Source: Psammoneis japonica (Eukaryota). Taken from it: DNA of 33,970 nucleotides. The notes beneath the pieces were generated by a model that ran no database searches, was not told the origin of the DNA, and saw only the letters and a list, made by a program, of their open reading frames with translations. Position numbers and translations under genes: made by a program. Shown here piece after piece: positions 1 through 33,970 of the stretch. Each line of letters opens with the position of its first letter. Position 1 is the first letter of the stretch. The stretch spans positions 582,182 through 616,151 of the forward strand of contig QPGO01000036.1 of the NCBI GenBank assembly GCA_008632985.1, read 5' to 3'.

Positions 1-1576
1 TACCATCATCTGGAAACCTCAATAAAAAATAATAACTTTCAGAAGAGCACCAGCATCATACTATACCGCCATCGTGTTGCACTCGCTCGCTCCGCTCCGG
101 TTACAGTAGAGCGAGAGCATACCATACGGTAGATAGCTGGGCCTACTCTCTCTACTCTAGTAGCTACTGCTACTCTCTAGAGTAGAGCTTGTACTGTAGA
201 GAGTAGGACCGTAGCTGCTAGAGTAGCAGCAGCTCTGCGTGATGGCACTTCTTCATGGAGCGGGCGGGCGCCAGGGGCTGCAGAGCTTCTCTGCCGACTG
301 GGCATCTTGTGCAGGAAACCAAGGGACATCACCATCATAGGATCTTGGGGCCAATGTCACAATGGCCTGTTGAAAGTGAGCGTGTGCCAAGTCTTTCCCC
401 ATTGACAGATGAAGATTGTCGAGCGGGGTGAGCAACATGGGGGCAGCTGCAGAGGCATTCACACAACTCAAGAGCTTGCTGTCACAGGACCAGACAACCC
501 ACTCCAGCCAAAGGCAGGGCTCCATGTGATGTGGTCCCACAGATTCCATGTGCAAGCTCTGCAGCTTGCAGCCCAGTCAATGGATGCATTCATCATTTTT
601 GACACACTCAAGTGAAGAACAACCAACAAGGCACCACTTCACAGCTCACAGATGTTGAAGAGTGGCTTTGCATGCAAAAATGTGCCAAAAGTTGTTGAGT
701 GGACAGCCCAACAACTGTGCTGCAAGGTGGCACAAAATTCCACCAAAGTCAAGCAGAAATGCAAGTACACGACATGTGGCACATGCTGATGGGGCAAAAA
801 AAAACACCAACATGTCACAGACCAGCAGCACAGGCCATCCCACCCAGAGCTGGAGCTTGTTGAAAATGAAGCCAAGAGATGGAGGGCATTTTTGTTGAGC
901 CACTGTTGTTGCAGTGAGAAAGTTTGGATGAGGGTTCTTGCACACTGTCAACAACATGTGGAAAGGTCAATGGACACTTCTTGTGATGGTTTTCAAGTGG
1001 ACGTGGTGCTGCTGTGGTCAGTGCACAAAAGAGCCAGAGCTGATTGCTCTGTTTGGGTTTGCCCATGTGTCTTGCAAGCTGTGCAGCAGGCACCATGGGT
1101 TTGTGTGAGTGCATCTTGCCATCATTTTTTCTCAAGTTTTAGTGCAAAAATGTGCGGTGGAGTGCATTGACTCCCATGGCAATGACAGCTCTTGCACTCT
1201 TTGTGCACGCAGAACCCGCCACATGGCACATGGCAAGCACCAATTCCATCTGAAGTGGCAGGTTGAAAATTCACAAAACCATGCCAACTTCAATGAAAGC
1301 CACTGTTAAGTTGGCTGATGCATGATGGAATTGGCATGTCAGCAGTGCTGTCAAAAAAGCAGCAAGAAAAGTCCAACATGACAGAGAGCTGGTGTGTGTC
1401 ACTCACTCAACTTGTGCACCAATCTCTTTCTTCTCTGGCCAATCCTCTCCATCATCTCATGTGCTGGGGGGTGCATTCCAGACACAGGTGGGAATCAATC
1501 TGTGTGACATTGGGCCAGCAGAATTCCATGTGCAAGCTCTGCAGCAAAATTGTTGGGCAATGAATGTGTCAACGAC

Positions 1577-1596
1577 AGACCATTTTGCATGGAAGA
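1577..1596 (+). repeat. Left terminal inverted repeat (mutated copy)
   Basis: Reverse complement of 6276-6295 except one CG->TG change. Confidence 0.9.
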
Positions 1597-1687
1597 AGGC
1601 CAGACAAAGTGGGGTGCGTGGAAGATTTTGGCCTCAAACTGCACCACGGGGACACAAAGCCACAAAGGACAGAACATTTGCATTGTC

Positions 1688-4200
1688 ATGGGAGTTCATA
1701 GTTTGCCACACCCCTGCTGCCATGTGGAAGGTTCAACAACTTTCTCAAGAGAAGCCACGAGCTTGGTCTTCAAGGAAAAGTGACTGGCTTTGACGTTGCC
1801 AGACTTTTGCACATGTGTGCCCGACAACGCATGCATGCATGCACAAATGGAGACTGCGGCCCTTTGTTGCAGGACTTTTCTTTGACATTGAATTGTCTCA
1901 CCAGAATGTGTGGTCTTGGTGATGAGCTCTTTGTGGCTTTCAATGGAAGAGACTCTGAATGGAAGAGGCACGAACGTGCCACAAGAGACAATGCCAACTC
2001 TGCCTCAGACAAGAGGAACAACAGCACACAAAATGAACCTCTGTGTGTTCTTGTGACCACAAGAAGGTTTGCAACTCCTTCATGGTGTCTTCCATCAGTC
2101 TGTTGCACCAGAGGAGGCAGACTCACAGCTTTGGCACCATCCTGTTGCTGTCAAACAGAAGTGGTCATTTCTGGAGACTCTGACATGCTTGCATTTGGGC
2201 ACAAGAAACTGCTGATTGTTGACTCCTGTCACACTGAGAGTGTCTGCCTCCATGGCATGGAGAGTGACAGCATGAAAAGAGCTTTGTCAGAAGGCAGCAA
2301 AATGACTGCATTTCCTTGTGCTTGCCTTTCCTTTCTTGGTCACTCAGTCTTTCAGATCTTTGGCACTCTTTGTTGTGGGTGTGATGGCACACCCAATCAA
2401 TCTGGTGTTCCGGGTGTTGGCAAGCAGCAAGCAGAAGACAGCTCTAGAAATTTTCAGTGCACTCATTGATGAGGAATCCTGCAAGGAATCTGGCAACCCA
2501 CCAGAATTGAATGTCAATTGAGAAGCAAGCATCAATCAAGAAGCAGCAGCATCTTTGTCTTTGCAATGAGTGGCAGAATGCACACTTTGAAGTGACGAGC
2601 TTGATGACACATGGACATGCAATGGGGTTTCCATGTGTGTTGCTGTTGCAACTGAGTGCTTTTCTGAATGGGCCGTTTGTTGTGATTGCAACTGCAATGT
2701 CAGGCAACTCAATGGAAAACTTGTGATGCCAAGCATGGTCATGACAAGGAAACACGCCACTGGAGAAGTTGTGCCTCGTGGTGAGCTCTCAGAACATGAT
2801 TCCAAGAATCTTGCTGCATTCAACCCACACAACCACTTTTACACAAATCATGGCTGTCTAAGAACAAGGTTGCTGATTGCTGTCTTGAAGAGGACAAGCC
2901 AGAGCAATGCAATGTTGTGCAGTTGAGGAGCTTCCTGAATGCTCGTGGAGCCAACACCAAGACAATCTCCAGAAAGATGACTTGGCAAAGTGCACAAAAG
3001 GCTTTGTCTTTCTTGAGGCAGAGGCACCTCATCTCATCCAAGCTTTCAACTGGGACAAAAGAACCTCTGGTTCTTTCTTTGTCATTGTCACTGAAGACCT
3101 GTGAGTGAAAATTCATGAACCACTTGAGAATCTCATGACTGCGGATTTCTTTCAGAGAAAAGAACACAACAAATTGAAGTGCAAGTTTTGAAAGCATGCC
3201 ATGATCTTTGCTCCAGGGGAAAGTTTCTTGCCAAGTTTGAAGACATTGCAGTTGAGAGCCCTGAACTTGCTGATTCTTTTGTTCACAAGTGCTGTGGCCA
3301 CGTTGGTGAAAGCAAGCACCAGAAGACCATCAGCACGGCCCTCCAATGGGTTCTGGATTGTGGATTGCCAGGAACTAAAGCTTGGCATGATTGCATTCTC
3401 AGATGACAAGACAAAACTTCATGTGCCATCTGAACAATTGGCATCCATGAGCAAGAATCAGAAAGAGAGGGCAGAAGAAGGTGAGTGAAAAGCACTCTGC
3501 CTGCACCTCATTCTCATGGTGTTGCAAGTTGAGCCAACTGCCCAAGCAAAAGATGGGCACAATCTTGGGTGCATTGTTGGAGTGATTGAAAGCCATTCTT
3601 GTGCTTTGTGCACTGCTGGTTTTGGCCAATGCACACACCATTGCTGCTGTGCACTCCACATCCAGCACCATCATTGGGGTGAAGAGAGAAGCACTCCCAA
3701 GCCTGTTGCAATGGGCAAATGTTGCTGGATTGCAGGAAATCAGCAATGTCAGCATGGCGCAACTCAGGGAGTTTCAGAAATGCAGCTCTGTCAAGCTCCA
3801 AAGACAGAAGAGGAAGCTGAGAGATGTGCCTTGAGGATGCATGGAGAAACATCAACTTGGGTGTCGGACCTCATTGTGAAATGCATGGCAACAATGCAAG
3901 CTGTCAAAGAATGCTGGATTGGAGGCATTTTTCTGAGGACAACCCAGTGGTGCAAGCTCTGTTCAAGCATCTCAGAACAATGCAATGAAAAAGCCAGACT
4001 GGCTGCTTTTGGTCAAATGTGTTCCAGAAACACAGCTGCCAGGGGTTGTCACACAGCCAGTCTGCAGTTCCAGTGCATTTGTTGTGCATTGTGCTCCTCT
4101 CTGAGTTTCTGAAGCCAGTCTTCATGAATTGCCATCTCACCAACATTGACCAACAACTTTTCTGGCTCTTGTTCCGCTGGCTCCGCAAACATCTTGTGCT
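1688..4200 (+). pseudogene. Transposon accessory gene remnant: XPG/FEN1/EXO1-family 5' nuclease, SAP-like motif, SWIM zinc finger
   Basis: Motifs in order across frameshifts: MGVHSL (1688), GFDVARLLH, FVAFNG..WKRHERATR, VAPEEADSQL (~2102-2131), VVISGDSDMLAFG, H3TH-like GCDGTPNQSGVPGVGKQQA, QLRSFLNARGANT..KDDLAK (~2917-2990), SCALCTAGFGQCTH..CAL..CCW (~3595-3730). The 3' end is approximate. Confidence 0.8.
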
Positions 4201-4329
4201 CACTTGTCATGCTCCAAAGGTGAACCTGTCCATGCACATCCACCAAACCATCATCTGCAGCACCACACCAGCAAATGCAGGCTTGGCAGGGATGTTGTCT
4301 GTGGCTTCCATTGATGCAATGCATTGACT

Positions 4330-6210
4330 GCCCACGGGTGATGGCAGGATGAAAGTTCTGCACAAGGAAACACACCCGCATCAACAACAGAGCCAGGTTG
4401 AGCTGAAGCAGTGGGGCGACACTGTTGAAGCATCTGCCTGTCATCTTCGCATGCCTGCCACCTGTTTGATGACAATTCTTGCATTCCCAATCTTCTGGCA
4501 GGGAGCCGCATCCTTGCTTGGCCATTGAGTCTGTGGCTTCAGTTTCTCAGTGGGGCAGATGCACATGACTCCTGACAATGCACACAGATTGTCAATGAGA
4601 AACCCCTTGTCCACCTGGACTGCATGCCCAAATGGCACATTTTCAATTGGTTTGAAAATGTTGGGGCAGATTGAATCCCCACAACTGCCAGCCGCTCCAT
4701 CTTTTGGCAGAGAGCCTTCATGCGTGCATCCAATGGGGTCAGAGCCACCAAAGAACTTCATTGTGTCCCTGCCCTTGTGCTCAGAATGCATGGTGGCATG
4801 CCCTGTCTTCATGCAGGACATCTGTGCCTCCTCCTCTGTGGCATCAAGAATGAGGAAAATAGAAGCATGCCCAAAGGCCCAAACAAATCCAGTCTGGAAA
4901 AACAGCCCACTGCCAAATGATGTCTGAAACAATGGAAGCAGCTTTGATTCCAACAAGTGGGGCAATTGCTTCCTTCTGAGCTGATCCAACATGACAGTGA
5001 AGACAGAAAACAAAACACTCTGTTTTTCAATCAATGACCTGTGCTTTTGGTTCAGTTGAGTGTGCAGTGGGTGGCTCAACATCACCCTTGTGTTCCCCCA
5101 GTCTAACCTTGCTGTGACACTCCAGTCCTCATGCAAGACCCGGATTGCCATCTTCTTTCTTCCAGCTCAGCACACTTTTCAAGGAAGTGCTCATCAGCTT
5201 TGAAATTGGGGAAAAAGGCCAGGTGCAAGGTCCTTGCATGACAGAGGAGCTTGCTGAGACAGATCTTCTGGCTTGCCATGTGTGCACTCTAGCTTGACTC
5301 CAATTCAGAAATCTTCAACATCTCCACTGTGTTCCCTTGCTGATCTGCAGCTCTGATGCAGAGCTCTCCCATCTCATTGTCTTTGTCAGATGGCTTTTTC
5401 TTCAGATGCTCTGCCACTTCATTCATGTGCTCTACCTCCAACTTTTTTCCCTCCAATTCTTTGTTGCAACTGTGGGCTTGAGCTGTCATTGCCATGGTGT
5501 GCTTCTCTGCTGGCACTCTTTCAATGGAAGATGGGGCACCAGCATCTGGACGAGTGACAAACTTCTTGGCTGCTCTTGACCTGGCTGTTCTCAGTGCATT
5601 GCTGACATTGTTAAAAGGATTGGAACTTTCAGGCCTTGAAGTGTTGCTGCCAGGACCATTTGTCTTCATGTCGTTCCTCTTGGCGTGTCTCTCTGCCACC
5701 AGCACCCACAAGCAGCCCAAACCACTCTGACAAGTCTGATGCCACAGTGCCAGAGAAGACACTTTCCACCGCTCTTGGGACCACACCTTGCACCTTTGCT
5801 TTTCCATCTCTTTGTGTGACTCAACTTTGCAGTTTGGAGGGGGGAAGCCAGTTTTTCTTTCCCCCAATCTCGGAATGTCGCATTGCTGTTGTGCGGATTC
5901 AGGCACCAGCACTTGTCCGACACATCAAAATGCCAATGTTCAGGATGAAAATGCCATGGTGCAATCACCTGACTGTGTGGATCATTCAAAAAACTTTCTC
6001 TCAATGCTCAGGTTTGACTCCAAGAGCAGTCATGACATTTGCGACAAAATTGTTGGGCACACGCACCATGTGAGATGAAGAACACCCCATTCCGTGACAA
6101 AAGGTGTTGTCACAAATGTGCAAGATTTCCTTCCTTTCGCGTTTTCGGGTCTCATGTGTTGTGGACCAAGAAGAAAAGGACCTTTACCATCGGGGGCGAC
6201 TGGAAACCAT
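4330..6210 (-). pseudogene. DDE_Tnp_4-type (ISL2EU/Harbinger-like) transposase remnant
   Basis: LILDATE, HATMHSEHKGRDTMKFFGGSDPIG (family pattern tYSxYKxxxTxKfLxGxxPxG), VQVDKGFLID, KIGNARIVIKQ and RVCFLVQNFHPAI. The N-terminal part has a C-x4-C...HF (THAP-like) segment and a coiled coil. Several stops and frameshifts; ends approximate. Confidence 0.88.
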
Positions 6211-6275
6211 GACTGCCGATGAAACACGCATCTACAGGTGTCGCTCGGGGTTGTGTCCGCCTTGTGCGTCTGTTC

Positions 6276-6295
6276 TCTTCCGTGCAAAATGGTCT
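6276..6295 (-). repeat. Right terminal inverted repeat (retains CG and flanking TA)
   Basis: Reverse complement reads agaccattttgcacggaaga; followed by AT. Confidence 0.9.
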
Positions 6296-6365
6296 ATTTT
6301 ATACTCTAGCTTTCGCATTTCGCACCGTATTCGTATTATTTTTGCATGCTCCATGCCATCTCACC

Positions 6366-7502
6366 ATGAGCCGCCGTCATTCACCGCCGTACAAGACAAG
6401 AGGCCTTGAAGATGAAAGCGACGATTCCATGTTGTTGGATGCTCTTCGCGGCTTGAACTTGCCAAATATGCCCAGCTCTAGCAAGGAAACCCCAACAATT
6501 CGGATACTGGCAGTTGCCGATGTTGATTTGCCGAGTGCGGCGGCTCTTGCCGAGTATGCACTACGAAAAGACGACAATTCCATTGGCGGAGGTAATGTAG
6601 ACTTATGTATAGCTTGTGGATCTTTCTGTAGTGACGACAACCTCCTGACAAATCCCAGATACTTGGAAGGTCGTTCTCGACAACGTATGGAGCACAGATT
6701 GGCAGGAGCTTCGGGCAACATTGCACACACGAGAGCTTTGCGGACGCGAGAAGAATCAGCAGCATTAGAAGGACTGGTCTCAGCAACTCTGTCACAACTA
6801 GAAAGCATTGTATGTCGATTGGTATTTATTCCTGGTCCCAATGATCCGATTTCGATAATCTCGCAGCCACCAAACACACCGCCTCGCCGGCTTACATCCA
6901 ACGCACGTAACGTTCATCGGCACTGGCTGCAGCTAACACCGGGGCTTGGCTGTGCTGGATTGATGGACGAAACGAGTATTGAACCAGATGCGGAGGATGA
7001 TGGTACTGGCTATATAGAAGCTGCGTCACGATTGTTGGAGTTGGCAAACCCAAACGAGCAGCATTACTCAAGTCACCCATCCTTATTAGCTTTTGACACC
7101 CCCTTGTCACAAACTATACTATTGACAGAACCATCACCACCTTCAAGAGAAGTACAACATGACGATACAAGTAGTAGAAATAGCTACAAACATGGTGGTG
7201 AGAGTCTCAATGATACGGATCTCTTTCCCCGAGAGTTCTTGCGGTTCATCGATGCTCCAGCAACTCAAAGCCAAGTTCTTGTCAATGTCTCTTCTGGAGA
7301 CGAACCATACCTAAGCCAACGGGGTAATGTATCATTGATTATACCAGGGTCCTTGCGAAAGAGTGGTGATTTCTGTCTGATAAATGTCGGACTCTGCCGA
7401 AATGACAATGCTACTAGTGACGTGTCGACTGGGTGCTCCTCCTACAACTGGAGAGTCAATCGAGTGGAATTTCGAAACATGAGGGAGGGGTCAAGTACTT
7501 GA
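6366..7502 (+). CDS. Uncharacterised protein, probable degenerate calcineurin-like metallophosphoesterase fold (378 aa)
   Basis: Long clean ORF of normal composition. ILAVADVD, DLCIACGSF and LVFIPGPNDP resemble the DxH, GDxx and GNHD blocks. ATG 6366 chosen because the upstream part of the ORF lies in the transposon end. Confidence 0.8.
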   Translation: MSRRHSPPYKTRGLEDESDDSMLLDALRGLNLPNMPSSSKETPTIRILAVADVDLPSAAALAEYALRKDDNSIGGGNVDLCIACGSFCSDDNLLTNPRYLEGRSRQRMEHRLAGASGNIAHTRALRTREESAALEGLVSATLSQLESIVCRLVFIPGPNDPISIISQPPNTPPRRLTSNARNVHRHWLQLTPGLGCAGLMDETSIEPDAEDDGTGYIEAASRLLELANPNEQHYSSHPSLLAFDTPLSQTILLTEPSPPSREVQHDDTSSRNSYKHGGESLNDTDLFPREFLRFIDAPATQSQVLVNVSSGDEPYLSQRGNVSLIIPGSLRKSGDFCLINVGLCRNDNATSDVSTGCSSYNWRVNRVEFRNMREGSST

Positions 7503-7921
7503 AGCTCGAAATACCGACATTTGGGAAGGAAAGTTGAATATGAACGAGTACGAACGCAGAAGATGGTGTCGGGGGATACTGTTTCTGACGAAGGGGAGTC
7601 AAGCTGGCGTTGCGACAACGACGAAGACGATTTTTTCGACGCTTAGAAAGCTTGCCTGCGGGATGAAAAAAACATGTGACGATTCTCAAATTCGAAGGAT
7701 AGAAAAAATATGACATAGAAAAATGTATTGCATCGCCAACATTGCGAATTGAGCATGCGGGTGTGTGTCTGCCAGTATCACTAGAGCGTCACCGTATGAT
7801 GCAATAATTAACGATGGTTTCTGTTGTTGCATCATGGCTTTTCGACAGAGTATAATACCAAATGAAGAACTATTGTTCTATAATTGTTGAAATGCCCCCC
7901 TCTCTCTCCAGCATCTCTGTC

Positions 7922-10900
7922 TTACCTACTACTGCAAGAGCCCGTATTGGGATTTCCTGTCCATTTGCAATTCGTGCACGCGGTGCAATCGTCTTTGATG
8001 GTAATCGACGTACATGATGCACATCCGGTGGGTGCTGAGACGGGGCTCTGGGACGGAGCTGGCGTAGTCGGTGTCGGTGGAGAAGGGCTCAGGCAGAGAC
8101 TTCCCGAGCCTTGCCAGGTGCAAGAGCTTGGGCCACAATAGGATCTGCACGGGCCGCCCCCAGCACCATCCGCATCACGGCAGTTGCAAGCCACCGGGCT
8201 GGCGGAAGGTGCCGGAGTAGGAGTCTTTGTTGGAGCAGCAGAAGGCGCCGGAGTGGGACTCTTGGTCGGAGCAAAGGTAGGGCTCTTTGTTGGAGCACCG
8301 GTGCCACCTGATGTAGGGGCAGCGGTAGGACTCTTGGTTGGAGCGCCGGTTGGAGCCTTTGTTGGCGCTGCGGTGCCGCTTGGAGTTGGAGCAGGTGACG
8401 AGGAAGACAACAGAGTGCAGAGAACTGGACGAACACCTTCACCAGCAGCTTCGGTAGACCAATACTTGTACACACTGGTACCATCCAAAGCATAGATGGC
8501 CAAGGATACCTGTGAGGCTGCAATGTTTGCGTTGACGAGCGAGGTGAGGTCAAAATCAACGGGATCATTCCTGACCGTTGGTGATGCCCCAGTGGCGATT
8601 GGGCCACCGACTGTTGCCGCCCCGGGCGAGTCCCAAGTGGAGGTGCCTGCCGACCAATTGTTATTGTCTAGCTCGTAAATGGCTGTAGTGACGCTTCGGT
8701 CAGCACCGTCGGTGTAACCAAAGAGACGAAGAGTAGCGTACTCGACAGAACTCGTGACGCCGCTAACGTCAAACTTTATGAAAGTTTGTCGAATGTCTCC
8801 AGCGACTGCCTTTGTATCAATTCTGTCGGACCCAGCGTAATTATTGGTAGGATTGGCTTCACGGATGGTGGTATCTTCCAAAGCACCCGTACACACTTCG
8901 AACGGACCAGAATCAGGGGACCTTGTCGGCATGTCAGTAGGCGAATTCGTCGGAGGCTCCGTAGGCTGGGGAGTTGGGGTCAACGTGTTTCCTGCCAACA
9001 CTGCTTCGACTCTGAGCAAGGCCACGTGGGTGGTAGTGCCGTCGCTCACCTCAAGCTGCAGCTGGTACACTCCATCCGTGCTGAATGATGCCGTTGTTTC
9101 AATCGCTGTCGCGTCCGCAATAGTAGCCACGCCAGGCCCAGACACTTGGCTCCAGGTGTAGCTATGCGAGTTTCCTAGCATTGTCAGGTCACGAACAATA
9201 CCACCAATGCCAAAGGACGTACTGGGCTCCGGTGGGTACGCGTCTTCGTCCTTGAACGTGATCAAGGGATCCAAGAACAGTCCATTCCCATACCAATTTG
9301 CCAGTTCCGTCCACACATCGCCCCACAGTTGATCCGGAAGCACAACATGACGAAGCGCATTCTGGCTGTTCAACCGATCTTTGAGTTGCGCATAATAGAG
9401 GGATCGGGGCGTCACGTGCTGCCCAATCGACCTCCAGAGACCGTTCTTTTCCACAATCGAGGAGTTGGTGTGCGGACCAATGTTTCCAACCGCCCAGTTC
9501 ATGGCGTTATTGGGAGCATCATTATTGAATGTCCCTTCGCAATTCCAAAACATGATTTGCGCACCACTCCAGCCGTGGCCAGATCCGGAGTCTCCTCGAT
9601 TCCGAACGCGTATCTGGCCGTTATTACCAAACGTGTCGAGAGTTTTGATGTTATCGTAGAGCTGTCCTGTTGCGTACCTATGATGAGGCCCAATGTCCGC
9701 ATTGGATAGAGTCGCCAGGGAGTCGACAAAGACATTGGGTCCCGGCGTGCGAGACCCAGAGACGTAGTCATGGCGGCCTTCGGAAGTGAGGCATCGATGA
9801 AAAAAGACAAAGTCAGAGTCGTCCACGTTGAAGGAGTAACGGCGGCCTCCCGAGATTGGGCTCTTGTGTTCAAGCATGGCGGAATCTTCGACAGTAATAT
9901 AGCTGGAATGCGATTGAACCGAGACCAAGCCATACCCAAAATACTTTCCTGTGACTTGACGAACCCACGAGTCGCGTACACCTTCAAATTCAATACCTTT
10001 CCAGCCGTGATTTTCGTCCGTGCTGGAGGCAAACGAAGATTCCAAGCGGATGTTCTCAACTCCAACATTGTAGATCTCGTTCTTCTGATAGGCATAGACA
10101 TCCGCACCACCGTACAAGACGGTATCAATGGCCTGGACAACGGGGGCATCAATCTCAATCTGATCGCCAATGACGCTTTCTACTTTGCGACGCCAAATGA
10201 GCTGACAGTAAAAGACCGAGAAACAGTTAGAAAACATGGCAAAGTCGCTATGCGACATGTGGTAGTCTACATGATTCTCTCACCTGATAGCTTTCCGTGG
10301 TCCATCCATACAGACCCATGTTGGACATTTCATCAAGCCAGGCTTGATTTGGCGTGAGCTTGATGGCAATCTCATCACCCTCAGTGAAACCATGACCCGG
10401 AGTGACGGTGAATGTCTTGGCTCCCGTGGGAACAAAGTTATCGGCAACTTGTACGGTTGCTCCCGACGCCACGGGTGAACTCGTGTCTCCAAGAATGTTA
10501 ATCATGGAACTCTTGACATTGCTCGTGTAGGTCACATTTGTTCCTCCTACGCCGGAGCCTTCGCCACGAAGGACAACACCACTTGCCGTGATGGAAAGCT
10601 GATTAAAGACCTCGTAGTCGCCTGCCTTCAAGAGTACGGCACCACGAAACCCATCGACCAACGGAAGCCCTGATACAGTATTAATTGCGTTTTGAATCGC
10701 GGTTCCATCATCACCGGGACCGGGATTCACCTGTCGCAACAAGAGAAGGAAATTAAGAGTGAGATGACTCGAGTTACAGTTATGAAACAGAGTAGTGCAC
10801 GAGAAATTTAGCTCAGGAGTCATTCTTGCTTCTCACATACCGTCGCTTGTGTTGGAACAAAGGGGATCGCAACGCCACCACCTTTATAGCCCACGTTTGA

Positions 10901-11125
10901 AAAGTCGGGAACCGTGTTGGTTTCTCCACCACTTACAACATTGTTGTTGGGTCCACTCTCGTTTTCGTACGCGTCGTATGTCAAGGTGATGCCATCCGAG
11001 TCGAGCGACACGAGCTGCGCATTGGGATCGAGCAAGGAGCGACGACGGATACGGACGCCAGCAGCATCAGCCCCACAAAATGAGGTAGTAAGAACAGCAG
11101 CAACAACAACAAAGCCAAACTTCAT
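7922..11125 (-). CDS. Secreted pectin-lyase-like beta-helix protein with PKD-like domain, DNRLRE/CBM96-like module, Pro-Thr repeats and Cys-rich tail (~1003 aa)
   Basis: Exons 11125-10841, 10730-10284 and 10201-7922 join in frame through GT-AG introns of 110 and 82 bp. Signal peptide; PDFSNVGYKGG, GDDGTAIQNAIN, FRGAVLLKAGDY, GPHHRYATGQLYDN, GSGHGWSGAQ, PRSLYYAQL; YTWSQVSGP..YQLQLEVSDG; DTTIREANPTNNY..FIKFDVSG. Confidence 0.9.
8190..8395 (-). repeat. Coding Pro-Thr-x-Ala/Ser (PT) linker repeats
   Basis: APTKAPTGAPTKSPTAAPT...PTPAPSASP in translation. Confidence 0.85.
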
Positions 11126-11519
11126 CTTGAAAGGTGTTACTGTACTGATTTATGCCTTAGCCTTATGCCTCCATCGATGATGTCTTTTTTCTTTATTTTG
11201 ATTTTTTGGACGGCGCCACGGCCGGCCGGCGGCGGCAGATTAGATTCCGCTTGTATGTACGAGCATTACGTAGAATGTACGTGTATTGAAGTACAATCTT
11301 ACAGTGTACGTATAAGTCTCTCGAAGCAGGCAGATACAGTAGTGTATTTATTGCCTTCTTTTATCTGGCATGATCAATACTTAAATAATAAATGACATTG
11401 GAAAAATGGTATTTATTGACGGTCATTAGACGATTGTCATGACAGAGACAGGAAGGACGTGTGTTGGTGTCTGTCGCTAGCAGGCTTAGGGCCCTCTACT
11501 GTAGGTTTACGGTGGCTCA

Positions 11520-13290
11520 GCATTGGCATGCACGACACCCAAGGATTTGTGAGTCTGTCAATCCTTGCTTACATCTGATCTGCTCTCCAATGGCAGCAGC
11601 TCTAGCTGGCTGGCAGAGAGGGGGATGGGGGCTCCCCAGTTTATTTGTGTGGAGCATGTGGGTTGTGAGCCACTGCCAGTTCGCACTGCGACACTCTCAC
11701 TTGGTGCTGCCGTCTTTGTCTGAGAGCCTGGATTCTGAACTCGAGAAGGACAAAAAGAACAGAAAGTGCTGGCACTATGGCTTCATCATGCAGACTGCAA
11801 GAGTTTGCAATTGTTGCAACAAGCACCTTCGTGTGTGGTTTGAGGCCGCGTGGTGTGTCTCATCGCTTTGTTGGTCCAGCCGTCTTCTGGTGCGGCCGGG
11901 AGCAGGTCTTTTCTCTCTTGAGGAACCTGTTCAATGAAAATCAAACAAGACATCTCTCTGACAAGATTGTGCTCTCTCTCTTTCTTGCACACAACAACAG
12001 GCAGGGCTGTCCAGGCACCAAGTGGAGTGTTGGTTTAAAGCAGCACACAGCGGCGCTTGTTGCTGCAGAAGATTCAAGCACAAAATGTGGTGCGCTGCCA
12101 GCAAGAGTGTTGCTCTTCTTTAGGCACCAGCTCTGGCAAACTCACAATGAGAAATTCCTGTCAGCCTGCTGCTTCCCATCTTGTTCCCCACTTGTTCTTT
12201 CTCCACTGGCTTGCCGGCCGCTTTGCCTGCGCTGCTTGTGCAAAAGCCACGCAACCTTTTGTCATGCTGCAAAACTCTCTGCACACCTGGCAAGTGTTCC
12301 TGACACAGCAATGCTTCCATTTTTGCAAAACCATGACAGGAAACTGTTTTGGCTGGCAAAAACGCTGACAACTTCAAATGCGCCAAGTCCGTCATTGAGT
12401 TTTCAAGCAGCCCTCAAAGCTGAACCCAAAACATCAAATGCAAAGATGTGTGTGATTTGTGAAGTGTGACAAGCTGCAGGCACCACAAAGATTCTGCTGT
12501 CTCGGCTCCTCCTCTTGCGCACAAAAGTTGCCGATTGTCACCAACAAAAGCACAGCAGGCAGTGGAAGACCTTGGTTGTTCAGACTCAACCCACCCATTT
12601 GGAGCTGCCAAAATGCTGGATTGATGGACAAAACAAGCGTTGAGACAGATGCAGAGGACAACTGCACTGGCCACACCAAAGCAGCATTGTGATTGTCAGA
12701 GTTGGAAAATCCAAACAAGCAGCACTGCTCAAGTCACCCATCTTTGGCTTTTGACAACTCCTTGTGACACAAACCACACTGCAGACTGAACCATTGTGAC
12801 CATCACGAGAAGCAAAACATGCCGGTGCAAGTGACAGAAACAGCTGCGCTGTTGTTGTGAAAGTCTCAATGACACAGATCTCTTTCCCCGCAAGCTCTTG
12901 CAGCTCATCAATGCCCCTGCAACTCAAAGCCAAGTCATTGTCAATGTCTCTTCTGAAGATGAACCACACCCAAGCCAATGGGGAAACACGGCATTGATTG
13001 TGCCCCAGAGGGTCCTTGCAAAAGAGTGGTGACTTCTTCTGTCTGGCAAATGCAGGACTCTGCCGAAATGACAATGCTGCCAATGATGTGCTGACTGTGT
13101 GCTCCACCTGCAGTTGGAGAGTCAATCAAGCAGAATTTCGAAACATGAGGGAGGGGTCAAGCACTTGAAGCTCGAAATGCCGACATTCACCATGAGCAGC
13201 AAGAATGCTTGGGGAAGGAAAGTTGAAAGATGGAGGAGTGCGAATGCCGCACGCATTGTGCATTGTGCTTGGAATGAGATTCTGATGAAA
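11520..13290. other. TpA-void, CpG-poor hypermutated domain 2 (unidentified repeat remnant plus duplicated gene fragment)
   Basis: About 6 TA in 11520-12125 and none seen from there to ~13295. Confidence 0.92.
12614..13247 (+). pseudogene. Mutated partial duplicate of the 3' half and 3' flank of the 6366-7502 gene
   Basis: Collinear with 6953-7557, e.g. tgctggattgatggac, ctcaagtcacccat, gatctctttccccg, actctgccgaaatgacaatgct, gaatttcgaaacatgagggaggggtcaag; small indels and stops. Confidence 0.95.
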
Positions 13291-16289
13291 TGTGATTGTA
13301 TTCTGACTTGGGAGTCAGCCTACGGCATGGAAGCCATTACTCACTATTTCCAGCAGCGGTTTAGAATGCTCTTTCTTTCGGGAACGAAACATGTAGATCA
13401 GGACGTTAGCACGAAATTATCAGAATTTCGCTCGTAACAGACAAGAGATGAAATTCCGGAGTACTTTAGTCTGCCTTGAGGACAATGTCCTTGATGCATT
13501 GGTCGGCAAGGAGCTACGGTAGTCGAATGCCGTCTTCCCTGGTGTTTTTTTTTTTCAGATTTTAACATGGTACATTCCCTCGAGAAAGAATCGATGCTGC
13601 CTCGTTGCAAGGAGACATCGTGAACGCTTTGACTTCTTGTACCTGGTCGAGAAGAGCATCTAGATTTAAACAAGCAGAACCCAGAACATGAAGAAACGAG
13701 TGATGTGAGAACCCAGCGGTAGCTCGTAGCTCTGCATTTGCTCGCCTTCACCCGCACGGCGACCGGCCTAGCTCAATCCGGCTTCTTACGTTGAAACTTT
13801 CTTGTCGACTCCACAAGCCTTGCGAGAAAGAAGAGAGATGCAAGAGACCACAAATATCTTAGCGCTCGTAAACCTTAATGACGGTAGCTATGGATCTTAC
13901 GTTTATGGTTGCCTTCCAACACACGCTTTCCTTGCGGTGATTGAGTTTAGTCGTTGAGCTTTACACAATGTTGAGCTTTACGTACACAATATGTATCTTC
14001 CGCAGAATCCTTCAAGAGAGACCACTCTGCCGGTATAATAGATGCAGCGTGGTGCATGCTGGTGAGACGAGTAAGGGGCCCTTGTCTTTCTTTTTTAAGC
14101 TCCTTTTTCTTTAGCAAAGCGACTGCATCGGTAAACTCCTTTTCTGTTTAAACTCCTCTTTCCTTTGCGCATCAAACATGCCAAAAACTATCTCTGGCGT
14201 TAAATGAACAAGAAGACCAACAACAACAACAAAATGAGACAAGTAACAGTACTGTACGTTGTGAGAGAACGATACCATAAAACTATCATTGCAGGCTACG
14301 AGTCCAAGTCACAGCGACGCACCGGTTGGAGTTCAAAACCGAATTGTTCTCACTAAAGGTGCGATAGGAGACAGCGGCATCGATGATGAGAAAGAGATCA
14401 GACGCCCAAACCAAGAGGCAGAGTGAGACTCTGCATCGTACCATATCGAATAGACAACGATGAATGTCATCGGAGCTAAGCTTGATGGAGCGGTAAACTT
14501 CTCTGTTTGAGTGCCGCCACCGCTGTTTCTGTTGTCCCAGAGTTTCAGTCCTCCTCTTTCTTCTATGAACTTGTAATCAGTTTAAATCTTGCCCTAAAGA
14601 GATGCAAAACGGATAGACTCAGAAGGTGAGAATGCATTAGACACGGTAACTATTCTTTGAGAGCTTGCATCTCTACTCCAAAACACACCTTGACAGAAAA
14701 CCCCAAGTGCGGCTGTACAGAAGGAGAAACAGCATCTTGAAGAAGAAGACTAGAGTTCCACACTCGCTTCTCTTCTTTTCTGGGTTCATAATTGTGTGGC
14801 TTGCAATCTTAAACATCAGTGTGGATACAACAACAGTGATCTCTTCAGATTCACCAGGCGCAACCACATCTTGCGTGTCTCTGTTGCCTTTTTTATTCGG
14901 CGTGCTCATCTCCGTCGACTTCATGATGGGAGTATTTTCCAATGAAGGCACTGACAATCGCACCGTTGAAGAATTAGATAAGTTCAGTCGAGTGAGTTTG
15001 TTTCGGATCTACTGATAATCGAATACCAACAATCGATTCCACAAGTGTCTATATGGAAGACCTTGCTAGTGGTGATTTGTCACGGCTTGTGCCTTGATCT
15101 TTGGATTGTTTGCTGCCCGTGTTTATCGAATGAAGTTGAGTCAAAATGAACCTTTCGCTACGGTACCAAACATCTCATGCTCTACCAATTGACAAAGGAC
15201 AAGAACCCTTGCGCAAGCACTGGCGGTATTGAAAAATAGAATCATGACATGATCGAGGACGATTAAAAAGTGGGACCAGCATGCAAATGTAATAATACCT
15301 AAACTACCGGTACCCGTTCCTCTTGTCCGCCGAGGAAGAGGATTCATCATCCGCACTGGGTACATTTGGATTCAGGTGGGCGATGGTGATGAATTTGGGC
15401 AGCCCGTTTCGGAAGTTGGAGTAGCGACGAACGGGTCGGGCTCGGCATACGGTATGTATTCTCACAGTAGGGCCCTACCGTTAGTTAGGGTCCTTCACAA
15501 TATTCTCCTCCAGATTATCCTAGACGAGCTCAATGCAGTTGCAATGCGCTCTACTCTCTAGGGCTACTAACTACTCCTAGTGTCGGTACTTACACTACTA
15601 TTTTATGCCGTGGGTGGAGACTCTACTAGCTAGCTCTCTTCTAGGGATAGAGAATAAAGTAGTGAAGAACTCGAATGCACTATGCTTTGCTAGCCCTGCA
15701 TTACTCGAGAAATACCAGTACAGTAATGAGTTCGAAAGCGTGTCTTCCGACATAACATCCAAAGCCATGGAGAGGATCTGGCAAGATTTCAAAGAATTGA
15801 CAGATCATTGCGCCCATCGCTTGGTTTGGGACACATCGTTGCCCGTACTCGTCGTCGTGTTGTCGTCGATAAAATCTAAAAAAACCCATGAATAATCGAA
15901 AACTGAAACCGCGTTCTTGGCATCGACCTATTTTCGTTTTCCCACTTTCATTCTCGTGTTAAGAGAAATACATGTGCAATCATTTTTTTCTCCTATGGTA
16001 CCTGTACTTTTACCTCTCTGCATGACGCGACAAGCTAACAATTATACTCCTTTCCTCCCGTAGAAGATCAGACATGGTTGACTTGCCAATCTGGCGAGTA
16101 GATATGGGCCATTGTTGAAGAGAAAGAGACTGATAGACGACAACAATAGAGGTCTCACGCGCCATCATTTCCCCCATCCCCACCGTGCTCGTACGGCATG
16201 CTTTATCGAGACAAAAAACCAAACGAGCAGCGGAGACACGAAGCCAGGAAAAAATCGACAAGCGCTTCAAGAACGAGCACCGTCTTATT

Positions 16290-18225
16290 GCCTTCTTGCG
16301 TATAGGTTCGCGGCAACGAAGCTTTCTGTTTCCAAACGTGTCGTGCGGAGCGAGGCAACGCATGTTAATCGACTCGGTGATGTGATTGAGAAAATCCAAC
16401 AAGATGGGAATCGAGGTTGAAATGGCCACCTTGTTTTCCCATTCAAACTCGGCCCACATGAAAATGCGTCGGTACAAGTTGCGGGGCGACTGTAATCCAT
16501 AATGTCCATGTGAATATCATTGAGATTGATGTATCCCTTCTCTCTTGTCGCCATGTCATTGTAGACAATGGTTCCAAAGATGTGCCCCGTCTCGGTGGAG
16601 GAGACCTTGATGGAGGCGCGGAACGTGATCTGATCAAGAGGGCCAATCTTCTGAGACTGCAGGCGTTCGACAATCTTCATGTTGTTACCCATCATGGCAA
16701 GCTCATCCGTCAAGTTGGCTAGTGTGTTGGGAGTACAATTGATGACCAGAATCTCCCAAACAATGTCACAATCATAGACCTTGACAAAAGCCTCCGCGTA
16801 AACATTATCCTCAAACCTACTGAGTTGGTACACATGATTCAGTTCGGAACTAAGAAAATAGTTGGTACCGGCATACCCAGTGGCACGTTCCAAATCATCT
16901 TCGTCTTCGTCTCCGTCGTCAAGGTCGACATCACCACCCTGAACAGCCATGGAACGCAACTGACGAAATTGGATCAAGTCGTCAGGCTGCGCCGTGGCGA
17001 GTTTGCCTGCGTCGTCCTCGCCGTCGGATGAAGCATCTTTGGTTTCTTTGTCCTAGAGCGTCTTGAGAACCTGGACAAACGTTGCTTCGCCATCGTTCAG
17101 GAGAGTATCCACGAGTAATAGAAATACCTTGAAGCCCGATAGCGTAAGGCAGCATATTGCAATGCGTTCCGAACAATCAGCCACGGCGGGACGCTGAGCT
17201 GAAACGCTGTTCTGGGCCATGTTGACAATACCGCACATGATGAGCAGCGTATCGGGCGTCATTTTCTTAATCGCCAATGCGGCCACTTGAGGCAAACCCG
17301 ATATCCAAAGCTTCACAAGGAACAGATTGGCCGTGCTTTTTGTGAACTCCGTTTGTAGAGTATACACTATTCGGTTGTTCTTCCTCTTTTTCGTTCTTGA
17401 CATCACCCGAGTCACCTTCTTCTTCTTTCATGAGGGCAAAAACAACCGACTCGGTAACATTGGGAAATCGCATGGCGCATCCGTGAATGTCCCGAATCAG
17501 CATATTCCGGTGGGCCATATGCCCTTGGCTTCTGCCATGGAAGAGTCCTGCTCTTGAACAGTCTTGGCAACCTCGCGCTTGAGCGTCGATACCACATCGG
17601 CAACAATACAAAGCATGACAATGTACACAGCAACATCCAGGAGCTTCTTGCAGATATCAGCGCTTGGGGAACTAAGCGCACGAGGAATGTCCATTAGCAG
17701 CTGCAAGATTTGCAATGACGAGTCTTCCAATCAATCAAGAACAATAAGCTTGATTTTGTTGTCATTCTTGCTATTCAACAAGTTTGCACAAGTGACGGCG
17801 GTAGCACGAATGACAGTGGGTGCCGAAGAAAGTGAGACTAGAGTCCAAGCTGCCTCGTAGGACACGGTAGCAGACGTGCTGGAAAGCATCTGAAACAAGA
17901 CCCGGACAAATCGTGACTTCTGGGTAGGATCACGACGACACACCATACGAGTAAGTCCGGACACAAGCAAGGCGAACCAATCTCCGTACTTGCCCACATC
18001 GTCCATGTTTTGGGCCAAGAACTGAATGGCCAAATCCTCCGACTGATTGAAAACACGAGAAAAGTGCTTCTCCTCGCAGCCACGTCTGATTCGGCTTGGA
18101 GGAATTCGTAAGGTTACATGAGCTCTGGTGCATCAGGTATCAAGTGCTCTCCAAACAGCTTGTGAGCGTGAAATATGGCAAGCGCCTCGTTCTCACAGAC
18201 GTATTGATGACGGTGTTCGAGACAT
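16290..18225 (-). pseudogene. COPB1: Coatomer subunit beta (beta-COP) pseudogene, truncated at both ends
   Basis: [105 protein letters not shown] and FVAANLYAR, spread over several frames with stops and deletions. Confidence 0.93.
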
Positions 18226-18493
18226 CTCGTTGCCATCCGTGCTCAAGGCGTATCGATCATCACGTTGTTGCGGGTGTTCTTTCTACACTTCTTGGACCGT
18301 ACCGTAGGACATTCGATCAGAACATAAGACGACGACACCATGCAATACGCATCAACACACGAGATGTCCTTGTTGATGTAAATAGTGGAAATCATTCAGC
18401 ATCTAGAGAGAGCAGCTTATTATATACAGTAGAACCGACTTATGCCGATCATCATTGTTCTCCTGTCATCGGCCATCGGCGCAGACGATCTTC

Positions 18494-23983: not shown

Positions 23984-24199
23984 AAACGAGACTGACACAA
24001 TTGTCGCCTCAAAATGAGAGCGCTCTGAGTAATACAGGTACGACGATATATTCTTTCTAGAATCTTTTATACGAGAGCTATTAGACTAGCTTATCATCAG
24101 ATCTCATTGACTGTGTATGTTGGAAAGAAGATGGTAACACCTCTTGAAATTAGACAACAGTTTTAGATCCGAGTGCATACCAGGTGTTGGTACATTATA

Positions 24200-25500
24200 C
24201 AGCATGCATCACCACCGCCCAACCCGACTTCCATGCAGAAGCGCCGCTTGCGTTCAGCATGTTGATTGAAGATGATGTGCCACAGTTGGCTGACGATTGC
24301 AAGGAGCAATTGTCAGGTGTGGCTTTTGCAGGAACCGGATGTTGTGATCGTGGCATGTTTGGAGTCGAGACGAAAAAGGAGTCCAGGAAGAGAAGAAGCA
24401 CTGGCATCATTTTGACAGTTGTTGGATGTGCTCAGCTCTGGACATCTCCATTCCATTGATTGTGGTTTGCAGTGGCTGCATGGAGAATGGCTCTGTTGGC
24501 TTCACAGGCAGTTCTTCAACACCAAAAAAGAAAAAAACTGCTTCAAACTTTTGGACAGATCACAAGAAGTGGTGGTTGATGAGAAGATTCTCTCACAAGA
24601 TCTCCAAGTGTTGCACAATTCACTCACTCCCTTCTCTGCCTCCAATCTTGGAAAATGCTGAAGTGGCAACTCTCTCCAGCAACCGCCCCTGAGAGTTCAC
24701 ACAGTGCCCGTGTTGGCTTGTGATGTGCGCCAAGCAATTTTTCAAGCTCTGGTGGCAGTTTCTCAATCAAGTCTTTCTCAAAGTCCTTGGCAGCATCATT
24801 GCCCCCATGCTGGCAACATGTTGAGTGGATCTTGGAGCCAACCACACACGGCTGCCACAAGTCGCTCCCCAAAATCATCATCTGTGCAGCCCTCGTGTTG
24901 GCTCCTGCTGCTCTGAGAGAGTGTCATTTTCAACATGCTGCAGCAGCTGACAATGACACTGCCCCATGCCTTGCATTCATCCAACCACCATCAGCTGCAA
25001 CTCGAGCTGGCCCAAAACCCAAAACACCGCCACGCCGCCACCAGCAAAAACCCCGGTGTGCAGAGCTGTGGCAACAAGGTGAGTGGGTGGACTGGCAGAA
25101 GGCACAAGAAAATGGGCAAATTCTGTTGCACTGCTTGTTGAGTGCATGCACTCCGCAGCCACAGCTGAAATGTTGTGACGGTGATCACTTCTTTTGCCAG
25201 CTGACTTGCAGCACCTGATCCGAGGGTGGCTCCAAAGTTTCGAAGAAAGCTCTGAGGGCCCTCCAATCTCTTTTTTTCTGTGCAACAAATTCTGCATAAT
25301 TTTCAACTGAGTTCTGAGTGCAACTTGTTTTGAGGCATCACTGATGATGGGATGCTCGCGAGGAGTGAGGATGTCTTTTCTGGATCTTTGCCGTTTGCCT
25401 GATCTTTGCGACCTCGTCAAGACTGAACAAGACCTCGCGAAACTTCGAGATGATGCGCGATGGCGGTGCGCCGCAGCTTTCCGTCCCAGCTTCGTGATGC
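24200..25500. other. TpA-void hypermutated domain 3 (unidentified repeat remnant)
   Basis: Only one TA seen (~25297) in ~1.3 kb; CpG is depleted in the core but retained at both edges. Confidence 0.92.
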
Positions 25501-26886
25501 CACGTGTAAAAAATAATCCCCCGTTTTTAACCAAATACCCACCTCGATCGACTAACAGTATACAGATACGGAGTTCAGCACACTTTTGGGGGCCTAGAAT
25601 GGGGGTGAACGTTAGTTACTAACCAATCACTGAAAATCGTCCCTCGTACTTTCACGTGTAATAAAGGTGCTCCACGAAAAGTTGGTTCTATTTTGAAATA
25701 CCAGATATCATGAACAATACATACCTATTACATTCTCGCAAGACATCGGTTTAATGAGGATGAGACCGATAATGCTCATATCTTGTGTATTTTGTTGCTC
25801 TAGCAGGGGTCAAAATCTAGCTAAAACTTCCAAAAAATTCGAGTCGAGCGGTTCCCACGGGATTCAATATGAAATACTCGTGACTCGCTGTACGATGAAG
25901 TGAAATTGACCCGTTCTCGACACCTAGATTAGATGATAACATCACCACAAACCGATTTTATGGCAATGTTCTACTTTCTAATTTGTCTTTGACCTCGTGA
26001 CCACTATATCCGACCTCTTTAATGCTATAAATGGGTGAAGCAATCCACGAATACTCATTCACAAGCCACACTTTTCTATTTTCAGATTTGACATTTGTGT
26101 CTTTGCGATCAATCTACTGTAGAGAGTATATACAAGCCAGGGAGGAGATCTATTCACTATTATTTATCATTCTATAGAATAATAGCATCAGAATATTTTG
26201 TCAACCATGTTTGACTGCTTTTTTCTTGAACCGTACGCCAACTTCATTCTTCATTTTCACTCTCATCCGCCCGACTCTCCCCATTCAAGAATACTTGGCT
26301 GAATGCATTACAGTTGCTTTATCAAAGTCTTCAAAAATACTCGTCTGGTCAACACCATTGATGAAATGGGTTTGACGATGTGACGACGACGTTGGATTCG
26401 TCGATGTGTTCATACTAGGAAAGACAACAAGAATTGACTGCAGCGGCAAGAAAGTTGAGTGAGACAACAATTGGTGAGCCTTGGATACATTGATAGCACC
26501 ATTTTGATTTTCAATTTACTTGCCTTTTTATAAACTAGGACTTTAACTCAGTGGGTGCCGAATATCCGGCAAATGGTGAGTTGATGGCGTCGTCTGCATG
26601 CAACATGCAACATGGCGTCACGAACGGGTGCAACGGCATGTTTGCATAAAACTCGACTCACTGCCGTTATCTGATGGTCCCTTTACAACCCCAAACGAAA
26701 GATAGTGTAATAAACCTGCTGTAGTAATGGGACTAGAAACGACGATTGTTTAGACACCTTATCTACCGCGTCAATGTCATCGTCGGCTCCGGCTGTTTTT
26801 TGACAAGTTCTCCGTGTACGTGTTGTCACCGCGGTGATGGTCTGTACGCTCATCCGGAGCGCGCCTGCCGTGCCAGTTTGAAGTTA

Positions 26887-33369: not shown

Positions 33370-33970
33370 TAAATCAGAAAGGTCACAAATTCATCATCAT
33401 CATGTGAGCCCAGTGCAAGCACGTGTGGTGCATGGCACCGCAGATTCTGCTGCTCTTGACGGAGTGGCACACATCGCCTCTGGCGCTCAACCCCCGCCTG
33501 CTTGCCAGCCACCACTTGCATTTTAGCTGGCAACAGGGCCTTGTCATTCATGCAAATGGAGCCAGGGGACTGTCACAAAACTCCTCATCTCCAGACCCGG
33601 GTCATCTGCTTGGAGTTTTCGCAAAACAAGCAAAAGGAAGAAGTTCTCACAAAAGTGTTGCCACATGCGGCCCTTTCAAACCCAGCCTTCTTCTGGCCAC
33701 ACCATTTCCCTGAACTCATTTTTCTTTTCTCAACCACTGGGACTCTGCAAACCCACTTGCTCTCTCTTTTTAATGTGCTGCTCCCCATCTTGCTCCTGTT
33801 CTTCTCTCTCCATTCTTTTTGTCTCTCTTGCTCACACTCTTTTTTCTCTTTTCTGGCGCACTTCCAACTTTCCACATTCACTCAAACTGACCCACAACAC
33901 CTTCATTGATGTCTTGAGATTCCAACAAACTTCCCTCAGTTGTGTTTGCCCATCATCATCTGACCAAAAC
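33370..33970. other. TpA-void, CpG-poor hypermutated domain 4 (runs off the window)
   Basis: 3 TA in 600 bp (ctaa, ttag, ttaa); TG/CA excess. Confidence 0.9.

Follow-up and report, generated by a model that had tools for sequence, protein, structure and literature searches.

Why would one of two copies of the same gene segment, lying 5.66 kb apart on the same strand, have lost every TA dinucleotide while the other keeps a normal number, and what would decide which of the two is hit? These questions are raised by a 33,970-nt stretch of DNA from Psammoneis japonica (assembly GCA_008632985.1, contig QPGO01000036.1, positions 582,182 to 616,151 of the forward strand; hereafter the window, within which all positions are counted), where the 3' part of a host gene recurs as a degenerate copy inside an island almost free of TA. 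The locus thus offers a natural experiment, with the same host sequence present outside an island (intact) and inside one (every TA gone), that can fix both the direction and the spectrum of the change.

Mutation aimed at this dinucleotide (TpA) has been described once, in a 2026 preprint on the chlorarachniophyte Bigelowiella natans. In mutation-accumulation lines of B. natans, two integrated viral regions, one from a nucleocytoplasmic large DNA virus (NCLDV) and one from a virophage, are reported to mutate at ~6e-7 per site per generation, nearly all of these mutations falling at TpA and yielding TpG or CpA (Mettrop et al., bioRxiv 10.64898/2026.01.13.699255). [quoted passage not shown] A full-text literature search returned no report of TpA-directed hypermutation of resident DNA besides this preprint.

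A partial gene copy without TA

Local alignment placed positions 12614-13247 against 6953-7557 on the same strand and showed that the 3' 40% of a host gene, together with 55 nt of its 3' flank, is duplicated 5.66 kb downstream. The features concerned are as follows.

6219..7502, plus strand: open reading frame (ORF) of the host gene, a member of a conserved family with 111 homologues; the true start is likely the Met at ~6366
6953..7557, plus strand: source segment, which takes in the final 183 codons of the host gene, its stop codon, and 55 nt of the adjoining 3' flank; 32 TA and 25 CG
12614..13247, plus strand: pseudogene fragment, a degenerate copy of the 3' part of the host gene; 0 TA, 11 CG, 2 in-frame TGA, and 7 indels relative to the source

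The alignment spans 638 columns, of which 37 are gap columns (7 indels), and 486 of the 601 ungapped columns are identical (80.9%). No homology was found past 12614 or 13247, where shuffled sequences reached maxima of 90.5 and 96 and the flanks scored 99 (a value that counts 18 overlapping homologous bases) and 76, respectively. Read in the source frame, the copy retains 96 identical codons among 183, with 29 synonymous and 55 non-synonymous differences and 3 gapped codons; two TGA interrupt its frame, and three frames are required to read through it. It represents a dead duplicate of part of the neighbouring host gene.

The contrast in TA content is complete, at 32 in the source and 0 in the copy, where ~40 would be expected from the copy's own base composition (Poisson P(0) = 3e-18). 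Aligned to the copy, the 32 source TA have become CA (14), TG (12), CG (2), or something else (4), such that a single transition to CA or TG explains 26 of them, with near-equal contributions from the two strands (14 versus 12). Over the same segment, TG rises from 48 to 70 and CA from 39 to 70. Substitutions between source and copy comprise 87 transitions and 28 transversions, and their distribution depends strongly on dinucleotide context: transitions affect 31 of 63 A/T positions within TpA, compared with 23 of 264 A/T positions elsewhere (Fisher P = 2.8e-12, odds ratio = 10), and 16 of 50 C/G positions within CpG, compared with 17 of 224 elsewhere (Fisher P = 1.8e-5). CG is also depleted, from 25 to 11, with 4 of the copy's CG being new; among the 25 source CG, 7 were kept, 10 became CA, 6 became TG, and 2 had other fates. 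The kept CpG are somewhat more frequent in the last 197 bp (5 of 11) than before it (2 of 14), a difference that is not significant (P = 0.18). Outside TA and CG, 62 of 488 sites (12.7%) have changed, and the duplication is therefore old.

A preliminary description of this DNA had reported the same pair, with about 32 TA against none, loss mostly through single transitions, a set of example strings, and some other differences besides. The local alignment recovered its coordinates, both TA counts and the prevalence of single transitions are borne out, every quoted string is present in the sequence, and the other differences proved substantial; the substitution tally by dinucleotide context that it had proposed places TpA transitions far above those at other A/T positions. 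Its estimate that CG was about half lost is correct by count (25 to 11) and too low by fate, as 18 of the 25 source CG (72%) are gone.

Direction of the change

The host gene appears to be a functioning member of its family. Its product has 111 homologues, of which the named ones are all from diatoms (33-45% identity, with one local match at 63%), shares with the family a common C-terminal PGSLRxxGEFCL...WRV motif, and gives a weak, sub-threshold match to PF04042. Two sets of assembled contigs bear on the window: X1, from a DNA run on the same sample as the window, and X2, from a run labelled 'DNA?' whose contigs contain intron-like joins. A 1408-nt X2 contig spans 6351-7758 with 0 differences, and two short gaps, one bounded by GT..AG, are bridged in X2 contigs; this pattern is consistent with transcription of the gene and a start at the Met near 6366.

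When the 55 differing codons were compared with 12 homologous proteins, 33 columns favoured the source and 6 the copy, and 16 were uninformative. Four invariant or near-invariant columns (I300, R380, A276, and F343) differ between source and copy, and the source carries the family residue at all of them; for example, from source to copy, I300 changed from ATA to ACA and R380 from CGA to CAA. Because family-conserved residues are kept in the source and lost in the copy, these protein comparisons support a change polarised from source to copy. The TA observed/expected ratio (O/E) of the gene is 0.72 where it is duplicated and 0.65 where it is not, and the window background (24,136 nt, with a CG O/E of 0.99) also stands at 0.65, which supports the conclusion that the parent gene was left unmutated, with normal TA and CG content. 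The preliminary description had likewise taken the change as polarised, given an intact source ORF, and the source copy as untouched; the 33 columns against 6, the two TGA and frameshifts of the copy, and the O/E of 0.72 against 0.65 agree with it on both counts.

At 7591-7618, within the source gene's 3' flank, 26 nt are skipped in contigs of both X1 and X2 (depths of 60.6 and 11.7), probably an indel allele. Between source gene and copy lies a 778-aa single-exon ORF (7922-10258, minus strand) that combines CBM96 and a PKD-like domain with a PT-repeat match too weak to pass its threshold, and X2 contigs join across an 82-nt intron-like gap (10202-10283) just past the 5' end of this ORF at 10258.

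Four TA-free islands

Four islands in the window share the same dinucleotide signature, and the copy occupies the right edge of one of them.

226..6184, no strand: island D1; 14 TA in 5959 bp, TA O/E 0.04, CG O/E 0.13 (core), TG O/E 1.82, CA O/E 1.80
11510..13298, no strand: island D2; 6 TA, all left of 12122, TA O/E 0.05, CG O/E 0.35, TG O/E 1.85, CA O/E 1.60
24199..25506, no strand: island D3; 1 TA in 1308 bp, TA O/E 0.01, CG O/E 0.26 (core)
33371..33970, no strand: island D4; 2 TA in 600 bp, ending at the window edge; its O/E values (TA 0.06, CG 0.41) are for the span 33241-33970, which holds 3 TA

Across the islands, TA O/E ranges from 0.01 to 0.06 and CG O/E from 0.18 to 0.49, compared with 0.65 and 0.99 in the background, and TG and CA O/E range from 1.5 to 1.85. 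The two expected products are balanced, with 679 TG and 678 CA in D1. Island edges are sharp within tens of base pairs, except that the left edge of D2 is graded (its right edge is sharp, with the first TA at 13299), and the right end of D1 (6184) lies only ~180 bp upstream of the start codon of the source gene. Comparison of D1 to D4 revealed no island-to-island similarity at the DNA or protein level, and no convincing terminal inverted repeats or long terminal repeats were found at the island edges.

Within the 1.8-kb D2, the absence of TA is not confined to the duplicated segment. Immediately to the left of the copy, the 492 bp of 12122-12613 hold 0 TA and are not homologous to the source, and further left, 11510-12121 is TA-poor (6 TA in 612 bp). 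D2 is covered by only one X1 contig (depth of 59.6) and is thus single-copy at a likeness of at least 88%. In its left part (11510-12613), ORFs had no Pfam match, the ORF at 11669-12466 had no homologue (none of 529 candidates at E <= 0.01), and a protein-level comparison found no match elsewhere in the window. The copy carries the same signature as the transposon sequence of other islands, in line with the preliminary claim that host-derived sequence is mutated once it lies inside such a domain. A fragment of a host gene was mutated in an island, and foreign origin is therefore not required.

Loss of CG follows the islands less closely than loss of TA. The edges of D3 (24199-24400 and 25341-25506) have CG O/E values of 0.75 and 1.24, compared with 0.26 in its core, and those of D1 (226-700 and 5601-6184) have 0.24 and 0.39, compared with 0.13 in the core. 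These edges are TA-free and yet retain CpG, and therefore point to processes of different reach or speed, suggesting that TA loss and CG loss are two processes, of which the one acting on TA is faster or wider-reaching.

Further observations concern the islands as such. A residual TA of D1 at 766-767 reads TG in an X1 contig (A>G at 767, depth of 66.8), which may mark an allele, TA loss that is still ongoing, or an error of assembly. X2 yielded no contig on D1 (668-6003) or D2 (11340-13340), which is not evidence of silence. Because TA-free DNA lacks TAA and TAG in all six frames, spurious long ORFs abound: D1 has over 30 that reach 90 aa or more (e.g., 1702-2466, plus strand), and one of 179 aa runs antisense to the copy (12589-13125, minus strand); such island ORFs risk misannotation as genes.

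D1 as a transposon remnant

The largest island contains one ORF with a recognizable ancestry.

4444..5166, minus strand: decayed PIF/Harbinger-type transposase ORF in D1; 241 aa without a single Tyr; the best of 119 homologues has E = 4.6e-46

On its own, this ORF matches DDE_Tnp_4 at 18.4 bits, under the Pfam cut-off of 24.8, and among 11 homologues scanned, DDE_Tnp_4 was found in all 11 (10 above the Pfam cut-off) and HTH_Tnp_4, weakly, in 4, all just under the 27-bit cut-off. Because of the DDE_Tnp_4 matches among its transposase homologues, D1 is, judging from protein similarity, a PIF/Harbinger transposon remnant. A search at its edges for terminal inverted repeats with a 3-bp target-site duplication returned no convincing terminal repeats, which would be expected if the ends have decayed or if the island is composite. 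D1 is multi-copy in X1, with a summed contig depth of up to 1107, compared with 59.6 in single-copy flanks; over positions 1-20000 there are 465 X1 contigs, including 201 at 90-95% likeness and 85 below 90%. The five loose-end consensus strings listed from within D1 (1499-1572) contain no TA.

Related Harbinger loci in metagenomes kept TA in 12 of 12 cases (O/E of 0.19-0.72 in the matched part), and Tyr makes up ~2-4% of the homologous proteins other than the two closest, compared with 0 of 241 residues in the D1 ORF. Because related loci keep TA and homologues keep Tyr, the TA-freeness of D1 is, by this comparison, acquired and not a property of the transposon family. The two closest homologues (P0232 and P0233, 54-56% identity) have only 0.6% Tyr. 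At conserved Tyr columns, D1 and these two relatives have His or Cys, the products of TAY->CAY and TAY->TGY, and at one such column His in D1 stands against Cys in P0233; with three columns, the pattern is anecdotal. The two proteins may derive from TA-depleted copies in the same or a related organism.

Flanking context and rate of TA loss

The few TA that survive in the islands are not a random subset with respect to their neighbours (Y, pyrimidine; R, purine). Of 23 surviving TA, 13 are YTAR, 5 YTAY, 4 RTAR, and 1 RTAY, compared with 170 YTAR and 353 RTAY among 1058 background TA (YTAR excess in islands, P = 1.5e-5); the YTAR class makes up 23% of the island CA/TG from which new TA would come. 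This suggests that the mutator prefers T-A-Y, which is R-T-A on the other strand. With such a target, RTAY would be favoured on both strands, YTAY and RTAR on one, and YTAR on neither, a prediction that therefore matches the ranking of the survivors. The most enriched trinucleotides in the islands are TGC and GCA (1.93x each), and TGY is enriched over TGR (P = 0.001). On the other side, the enrichment of RCA over YCA in the islands is not significant (P = 0.26), and neither is the result that 9 of 12 YTAY/RTAR sites in the copy changed in the direction predicted by T-A-Y (P = 0.07).

We infer that TA was lost at least ~13 times as fast as the transition rate of other A/T sites, a figure bounded by the 0 of 32 survivors. 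Taken as a balance between creation and destruction, the ratios of TG+CA to TA in the islands (58-270) would imply a roughly hundred-fold elevation. This estimate is lower than the ~1000-fold measured for B. natans in the preprint's main text and points in the same direction.

A probable region-confined process and its alternatives

Taken together, we consider it probable that a real, polarised, region-confined, and TpA-specific mutational process shaped the islands. Targeting by region rather than by homology is somewhat favoured by the layout of the sequence, because the source is intact, the TA-free tract runs into non-homologous DNA, and the edges are sharp; chromatin-directed targeting, as the preliminary description had supposed, would be a reasonable, if conjectural, form of it. 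For the chemistry, the analogy with B. natans points to adenine deamination, to which we would give slightly less than an even chance.

The events might then run as follows. The cell would mark the islands as transposon-type, probably silenced chromatin, and A at TpA within marked islands would be converted to G, most likely by an enzyme that deaminates adenine in DNA to hypoxanthine, in an editing step with a T-A-Y preference. CpG in the islands would be methylated, with 5-methylcytosine (5mC) deaminating to T. Anything within an island would be mutated, whatever its origin, and the outcome would be missense scrambling (no Tyr and no ATA, CTA, GTA, or TTA codons) plus the loss of TA-containing signals, as opposed to the stops of fungal repeat-induced point mutation (RIP).

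Several points weigh against this interpretation. Both the targeting and the chemistry are read from sequence, and X1, which agrees with the window, shares its sample. The outgroup alignment was made with the source and without the copy, and therefore leans to the source at variable columns, and with a duplication as old as the 12.7% change at ordinary sites implies, some of the TA may be derived states of the source lineage. Purifying selection acts on the parent gene and would remove alleles that had been hit. On its right side, the TA-free tract stops at 13298, 51 bp past the copy, a distance over which ~2 TA would be expected, such that this edge is indistinguishable from the end of the duplicate. 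Finally, the left part of D2 may be a repeat below 88% likeness.

The alternative that survives best keeps the region-confined process and changes only its chemistry. T in TpA would be oxidised, by a TET/JBP-type enzyme, to 5-hydroxymethyluracil (5hmU) or a further-modified base, whose mispairing or faulty repair would give T->C. The symmetry of TA->CA (14) and TA->TG (12) fits this equally, as does the flank preference, since T-A-Y is R-T-A on the opposite strand and a T-centred motif would serve as well. In dinoflagellate DNA, 5hmU is enriched at TpA. The precedent, in the main text of its preprint, instead proposes adenine deamination with an ADAT2-like candidate, itself a proposal only, and we regard thymine chemistry as unlikely.

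Somewhat less probable still is a mutator triggered by homology, with a logic like that of RIP, which would have hit the duplicate, with the mutated alleles of the parent purged by selection and the TA-poor DNA to the left of the copy left as leakage. It is true that the mutated segment is a duplicate, that D1 is multi-copy, that the TA of D2 thin out towards the copy from the left (6 in 11510-12121, then none), and that the right edge falls no more than 51 bp from the copy's end. However, the parent has a TA O/E of 0.72, at or above the background of 0.65, and this includes synonymous and cross-codon TA that selection would not guard singly. D2 lies under one contig only at a likeness of at least 88%, D3 and D4 have no duplicate in the window, leakage to one side only would be odd, and the hypermutable viral region of B. 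natans is, according to the preprint's main text, single-copy. We consider a homology trigger improbable.

The remaining alternatives were rejected. If the copy were a retrocopy of an RNA hyper-edited from A to I on both strands of a double-stranded RNA (dsRNA), the preference of ADAR for U before the edited A, raised in the Discussion of the B. natans preprint, would supply the TpA context, and the copy does begin within the coding region and include 3' flank. Promiscuous editing would not be expected to remove 100% of TA and yet leave transitions at just 8.7% of other A/T, nor would it explain the CpG loss, the 492 bp of non-homologous flank that are equally TA-free, or the same signature in the transposon DNA of D1; moreover, no poly-A tail follows the copy, and neither target-site duplications nor TA-normal flanks were seen there. 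We give this explanation very little credence.

Selection against TA, through avoidance of transposon insertion at TA/TAA, of a TA-reading nuclease, or of AU-rich RNA signals, fares no better. PIF/Harbinger and Tc1/mariner elements insert at TAA and TA, respectively, and TA-free DNA would be refractory to them. The copy, however, is a frameshifted pseudogene with stops and the islands are non-coding remnants, selection would need to act on hundreds of single sites in junk DNA, and the gain is specific to the transition products TG and CA, all of which make this reading highly implausible. Least credible of all is an artefact of base-calling or assembly at modified bases, with TG or CA written for TA and CG: some long-read base-callers do miscall systematically at methylated motifs, and the run platform is not on record, but an independently built 10,026-nt X1 contig (depth of 59.6; same sample) matches 4821-14846 with 1 difference, the copy differs from the source also by 7 indels and 62 ordinary substitutions, and Tyr->His/Cys changes also occur in those database proteins that are closest to the D1 transposase.

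Comparison with known mutational systems

The closest known likeness is with B. natans as described in the main text of the preprint. There, as here, A:T->G:C transitions at TpA give TpG or CpA depending on the strand (26 of 32 sites in our copy), and the process is confined to certain regions with a normal genome around them; in the window, the Harbinger-derived D1 is mutated and the source gene ~180 bp away is normal. The long-term footprint, TpA depletion with CpA and TpG enrichment, is also shared. All four islands pass the cut-offs used for B. natans clusters (Rho TpA <= 0.43, Rho CpA+TpG >= 1.52; bioRxiv 10.64898/2026.01.13.699255), with TG/CA values of 1.52-1.85, although D2 to D4 are shorter than 3 kb.

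The differences are equally clear within what the preprint's main text covers. Erasure in the islands is near-complete (O/E of 0.01-0.06), whereas in B. natans the NCLDV region has a Rho of 0.45 and the virophage region shows no depletion. CpG is co-depleted in the islands, and CpG is unmentioned in that main text, which also gives no sequence context beyond TpA, in contrast to the flank bias of our survivors. A host gene fragment is mutated here, unlike in the foreign-DNA framing of the preprint. On the other hand, mutation rates were measured directly in B. natans, while in our window they are estimated from the footprint. The organisms differ as well: the nearest named proteins to those of the window are from diatoms, which the main text on B. 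natans does not mention. What is new relative to that account is thus another lineage, near-total TA erasure, coupled CpG decay, the internal control provided by a host gene, and the flank bias.

Ascomycete RIP offers a second comparison, in that it is also a transition hypermutation that ruins repeat and transposon DNA and leaves a dinucleotide footprint in sharp compositional islands. RIP changes C to T at CpA, creating TpA and stops, and it mutates both duplicates; in the islands, TA is destroyed, TAA and TAG stops vanish, and the parent is intact. RIP needs a sexual cycle and RID/Dim-2. Fungal RIP was considered as a candidate for the window and rejected, since the direction is wrong (TA from 32 to 0, CA from 39 to 70, island TA O/E of 0.04) and only one copy is mutated. 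The preliminary description had drawn the same distinction from the single copy hit, and the destruction rather than creation of TA beside a source with an O/E of 0.72 and an intact ORF sustains it.

The CG half of the signature has a familiar counterpart. Methylated transposons lose CpG through 5mC deamination in animals and plants and in the transposons of diatoms, and the conversion of 16 of 25 source CpG to TpG or CpA, with island CG O/E values of 0.13-0.49 against 0.99 in the background, resembles such decay. By itself, 5mC decay would cover only this half, and the depletion of CG is weaker than that of TA and more graded. APOBEC and ADAR enzymes likewise leave deaminase-type, context-dependent clusters of transitions in parasitic sequences. 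However, they act on single-stranded DNA or dsRNA intermediates before or during integration, at a fraction of sites and on one strand, whereas in the window the affected DNA is resident in the chromosome, takes in a host fragment and flanks without homology, and is stripped of essentially all TA on both strands.

Genomic setting of the window

The genes of the window are eukaryotic, among them coatomer beta, APC4, WD40, and RING genes, and X2 contigs show short joins of the GT..AG type. Protein matches for two of the genes include none above 68%, and the named best matches are from diatoms; the coatomer-beta exon has 63-68% identity to eight named diatom proteins and two unnamed database proteins, which are 83-97% identical among themselves. 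These identities set the source apart from B. natans, whose proteins should match at nearly 100% if they are present in the database, and from the crown diatoms sampled there. Over the coatomer-beta region (14675-18676), several X1 contigs at 88-95% likeness with many fixed differences pile up to a summed depth of 368, compared with ~59 elsewhere, and may represent divergent alleles, paralogues, or other organisms in the sample. The same region contains a tandem direct repeat of ~75-80 nt (18482-18561 and 18553-18630, 90% identical). A low-GC, TA-rich stretch at 26929-27011 forms an 83-nt near-perfect palindrome (91.6% self-complementary).

Implications

Because the same host sequence stands both outside and inside an island, the locus makes targeting by region, as opposed to homology, testable genome-wide, and the less complete decay of CpG and the YTAR bias of the surviving TA provide handles on the enzyme or enzymes involved. 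The broadest interpretation, that a second, unrelated lineage, nearest to stramenopile algae by its protein matches, runs a chromatin-domain-directed eraser of TpA and CpG that includes host genes and prefers T-A-Y, is tentative, and we consider it doubtful as a whole. If it is true, then together with the rhizarian B. natans it would suggest that TA-erasing DNA editing is widespread and possibly an ancient genome defence of the stramenopile-alveolate-rhizarian (SAR) group. Such a defence would act by missense scrambling and the loss of signals, and it would be targeted by location, not by homology or foreign origin.

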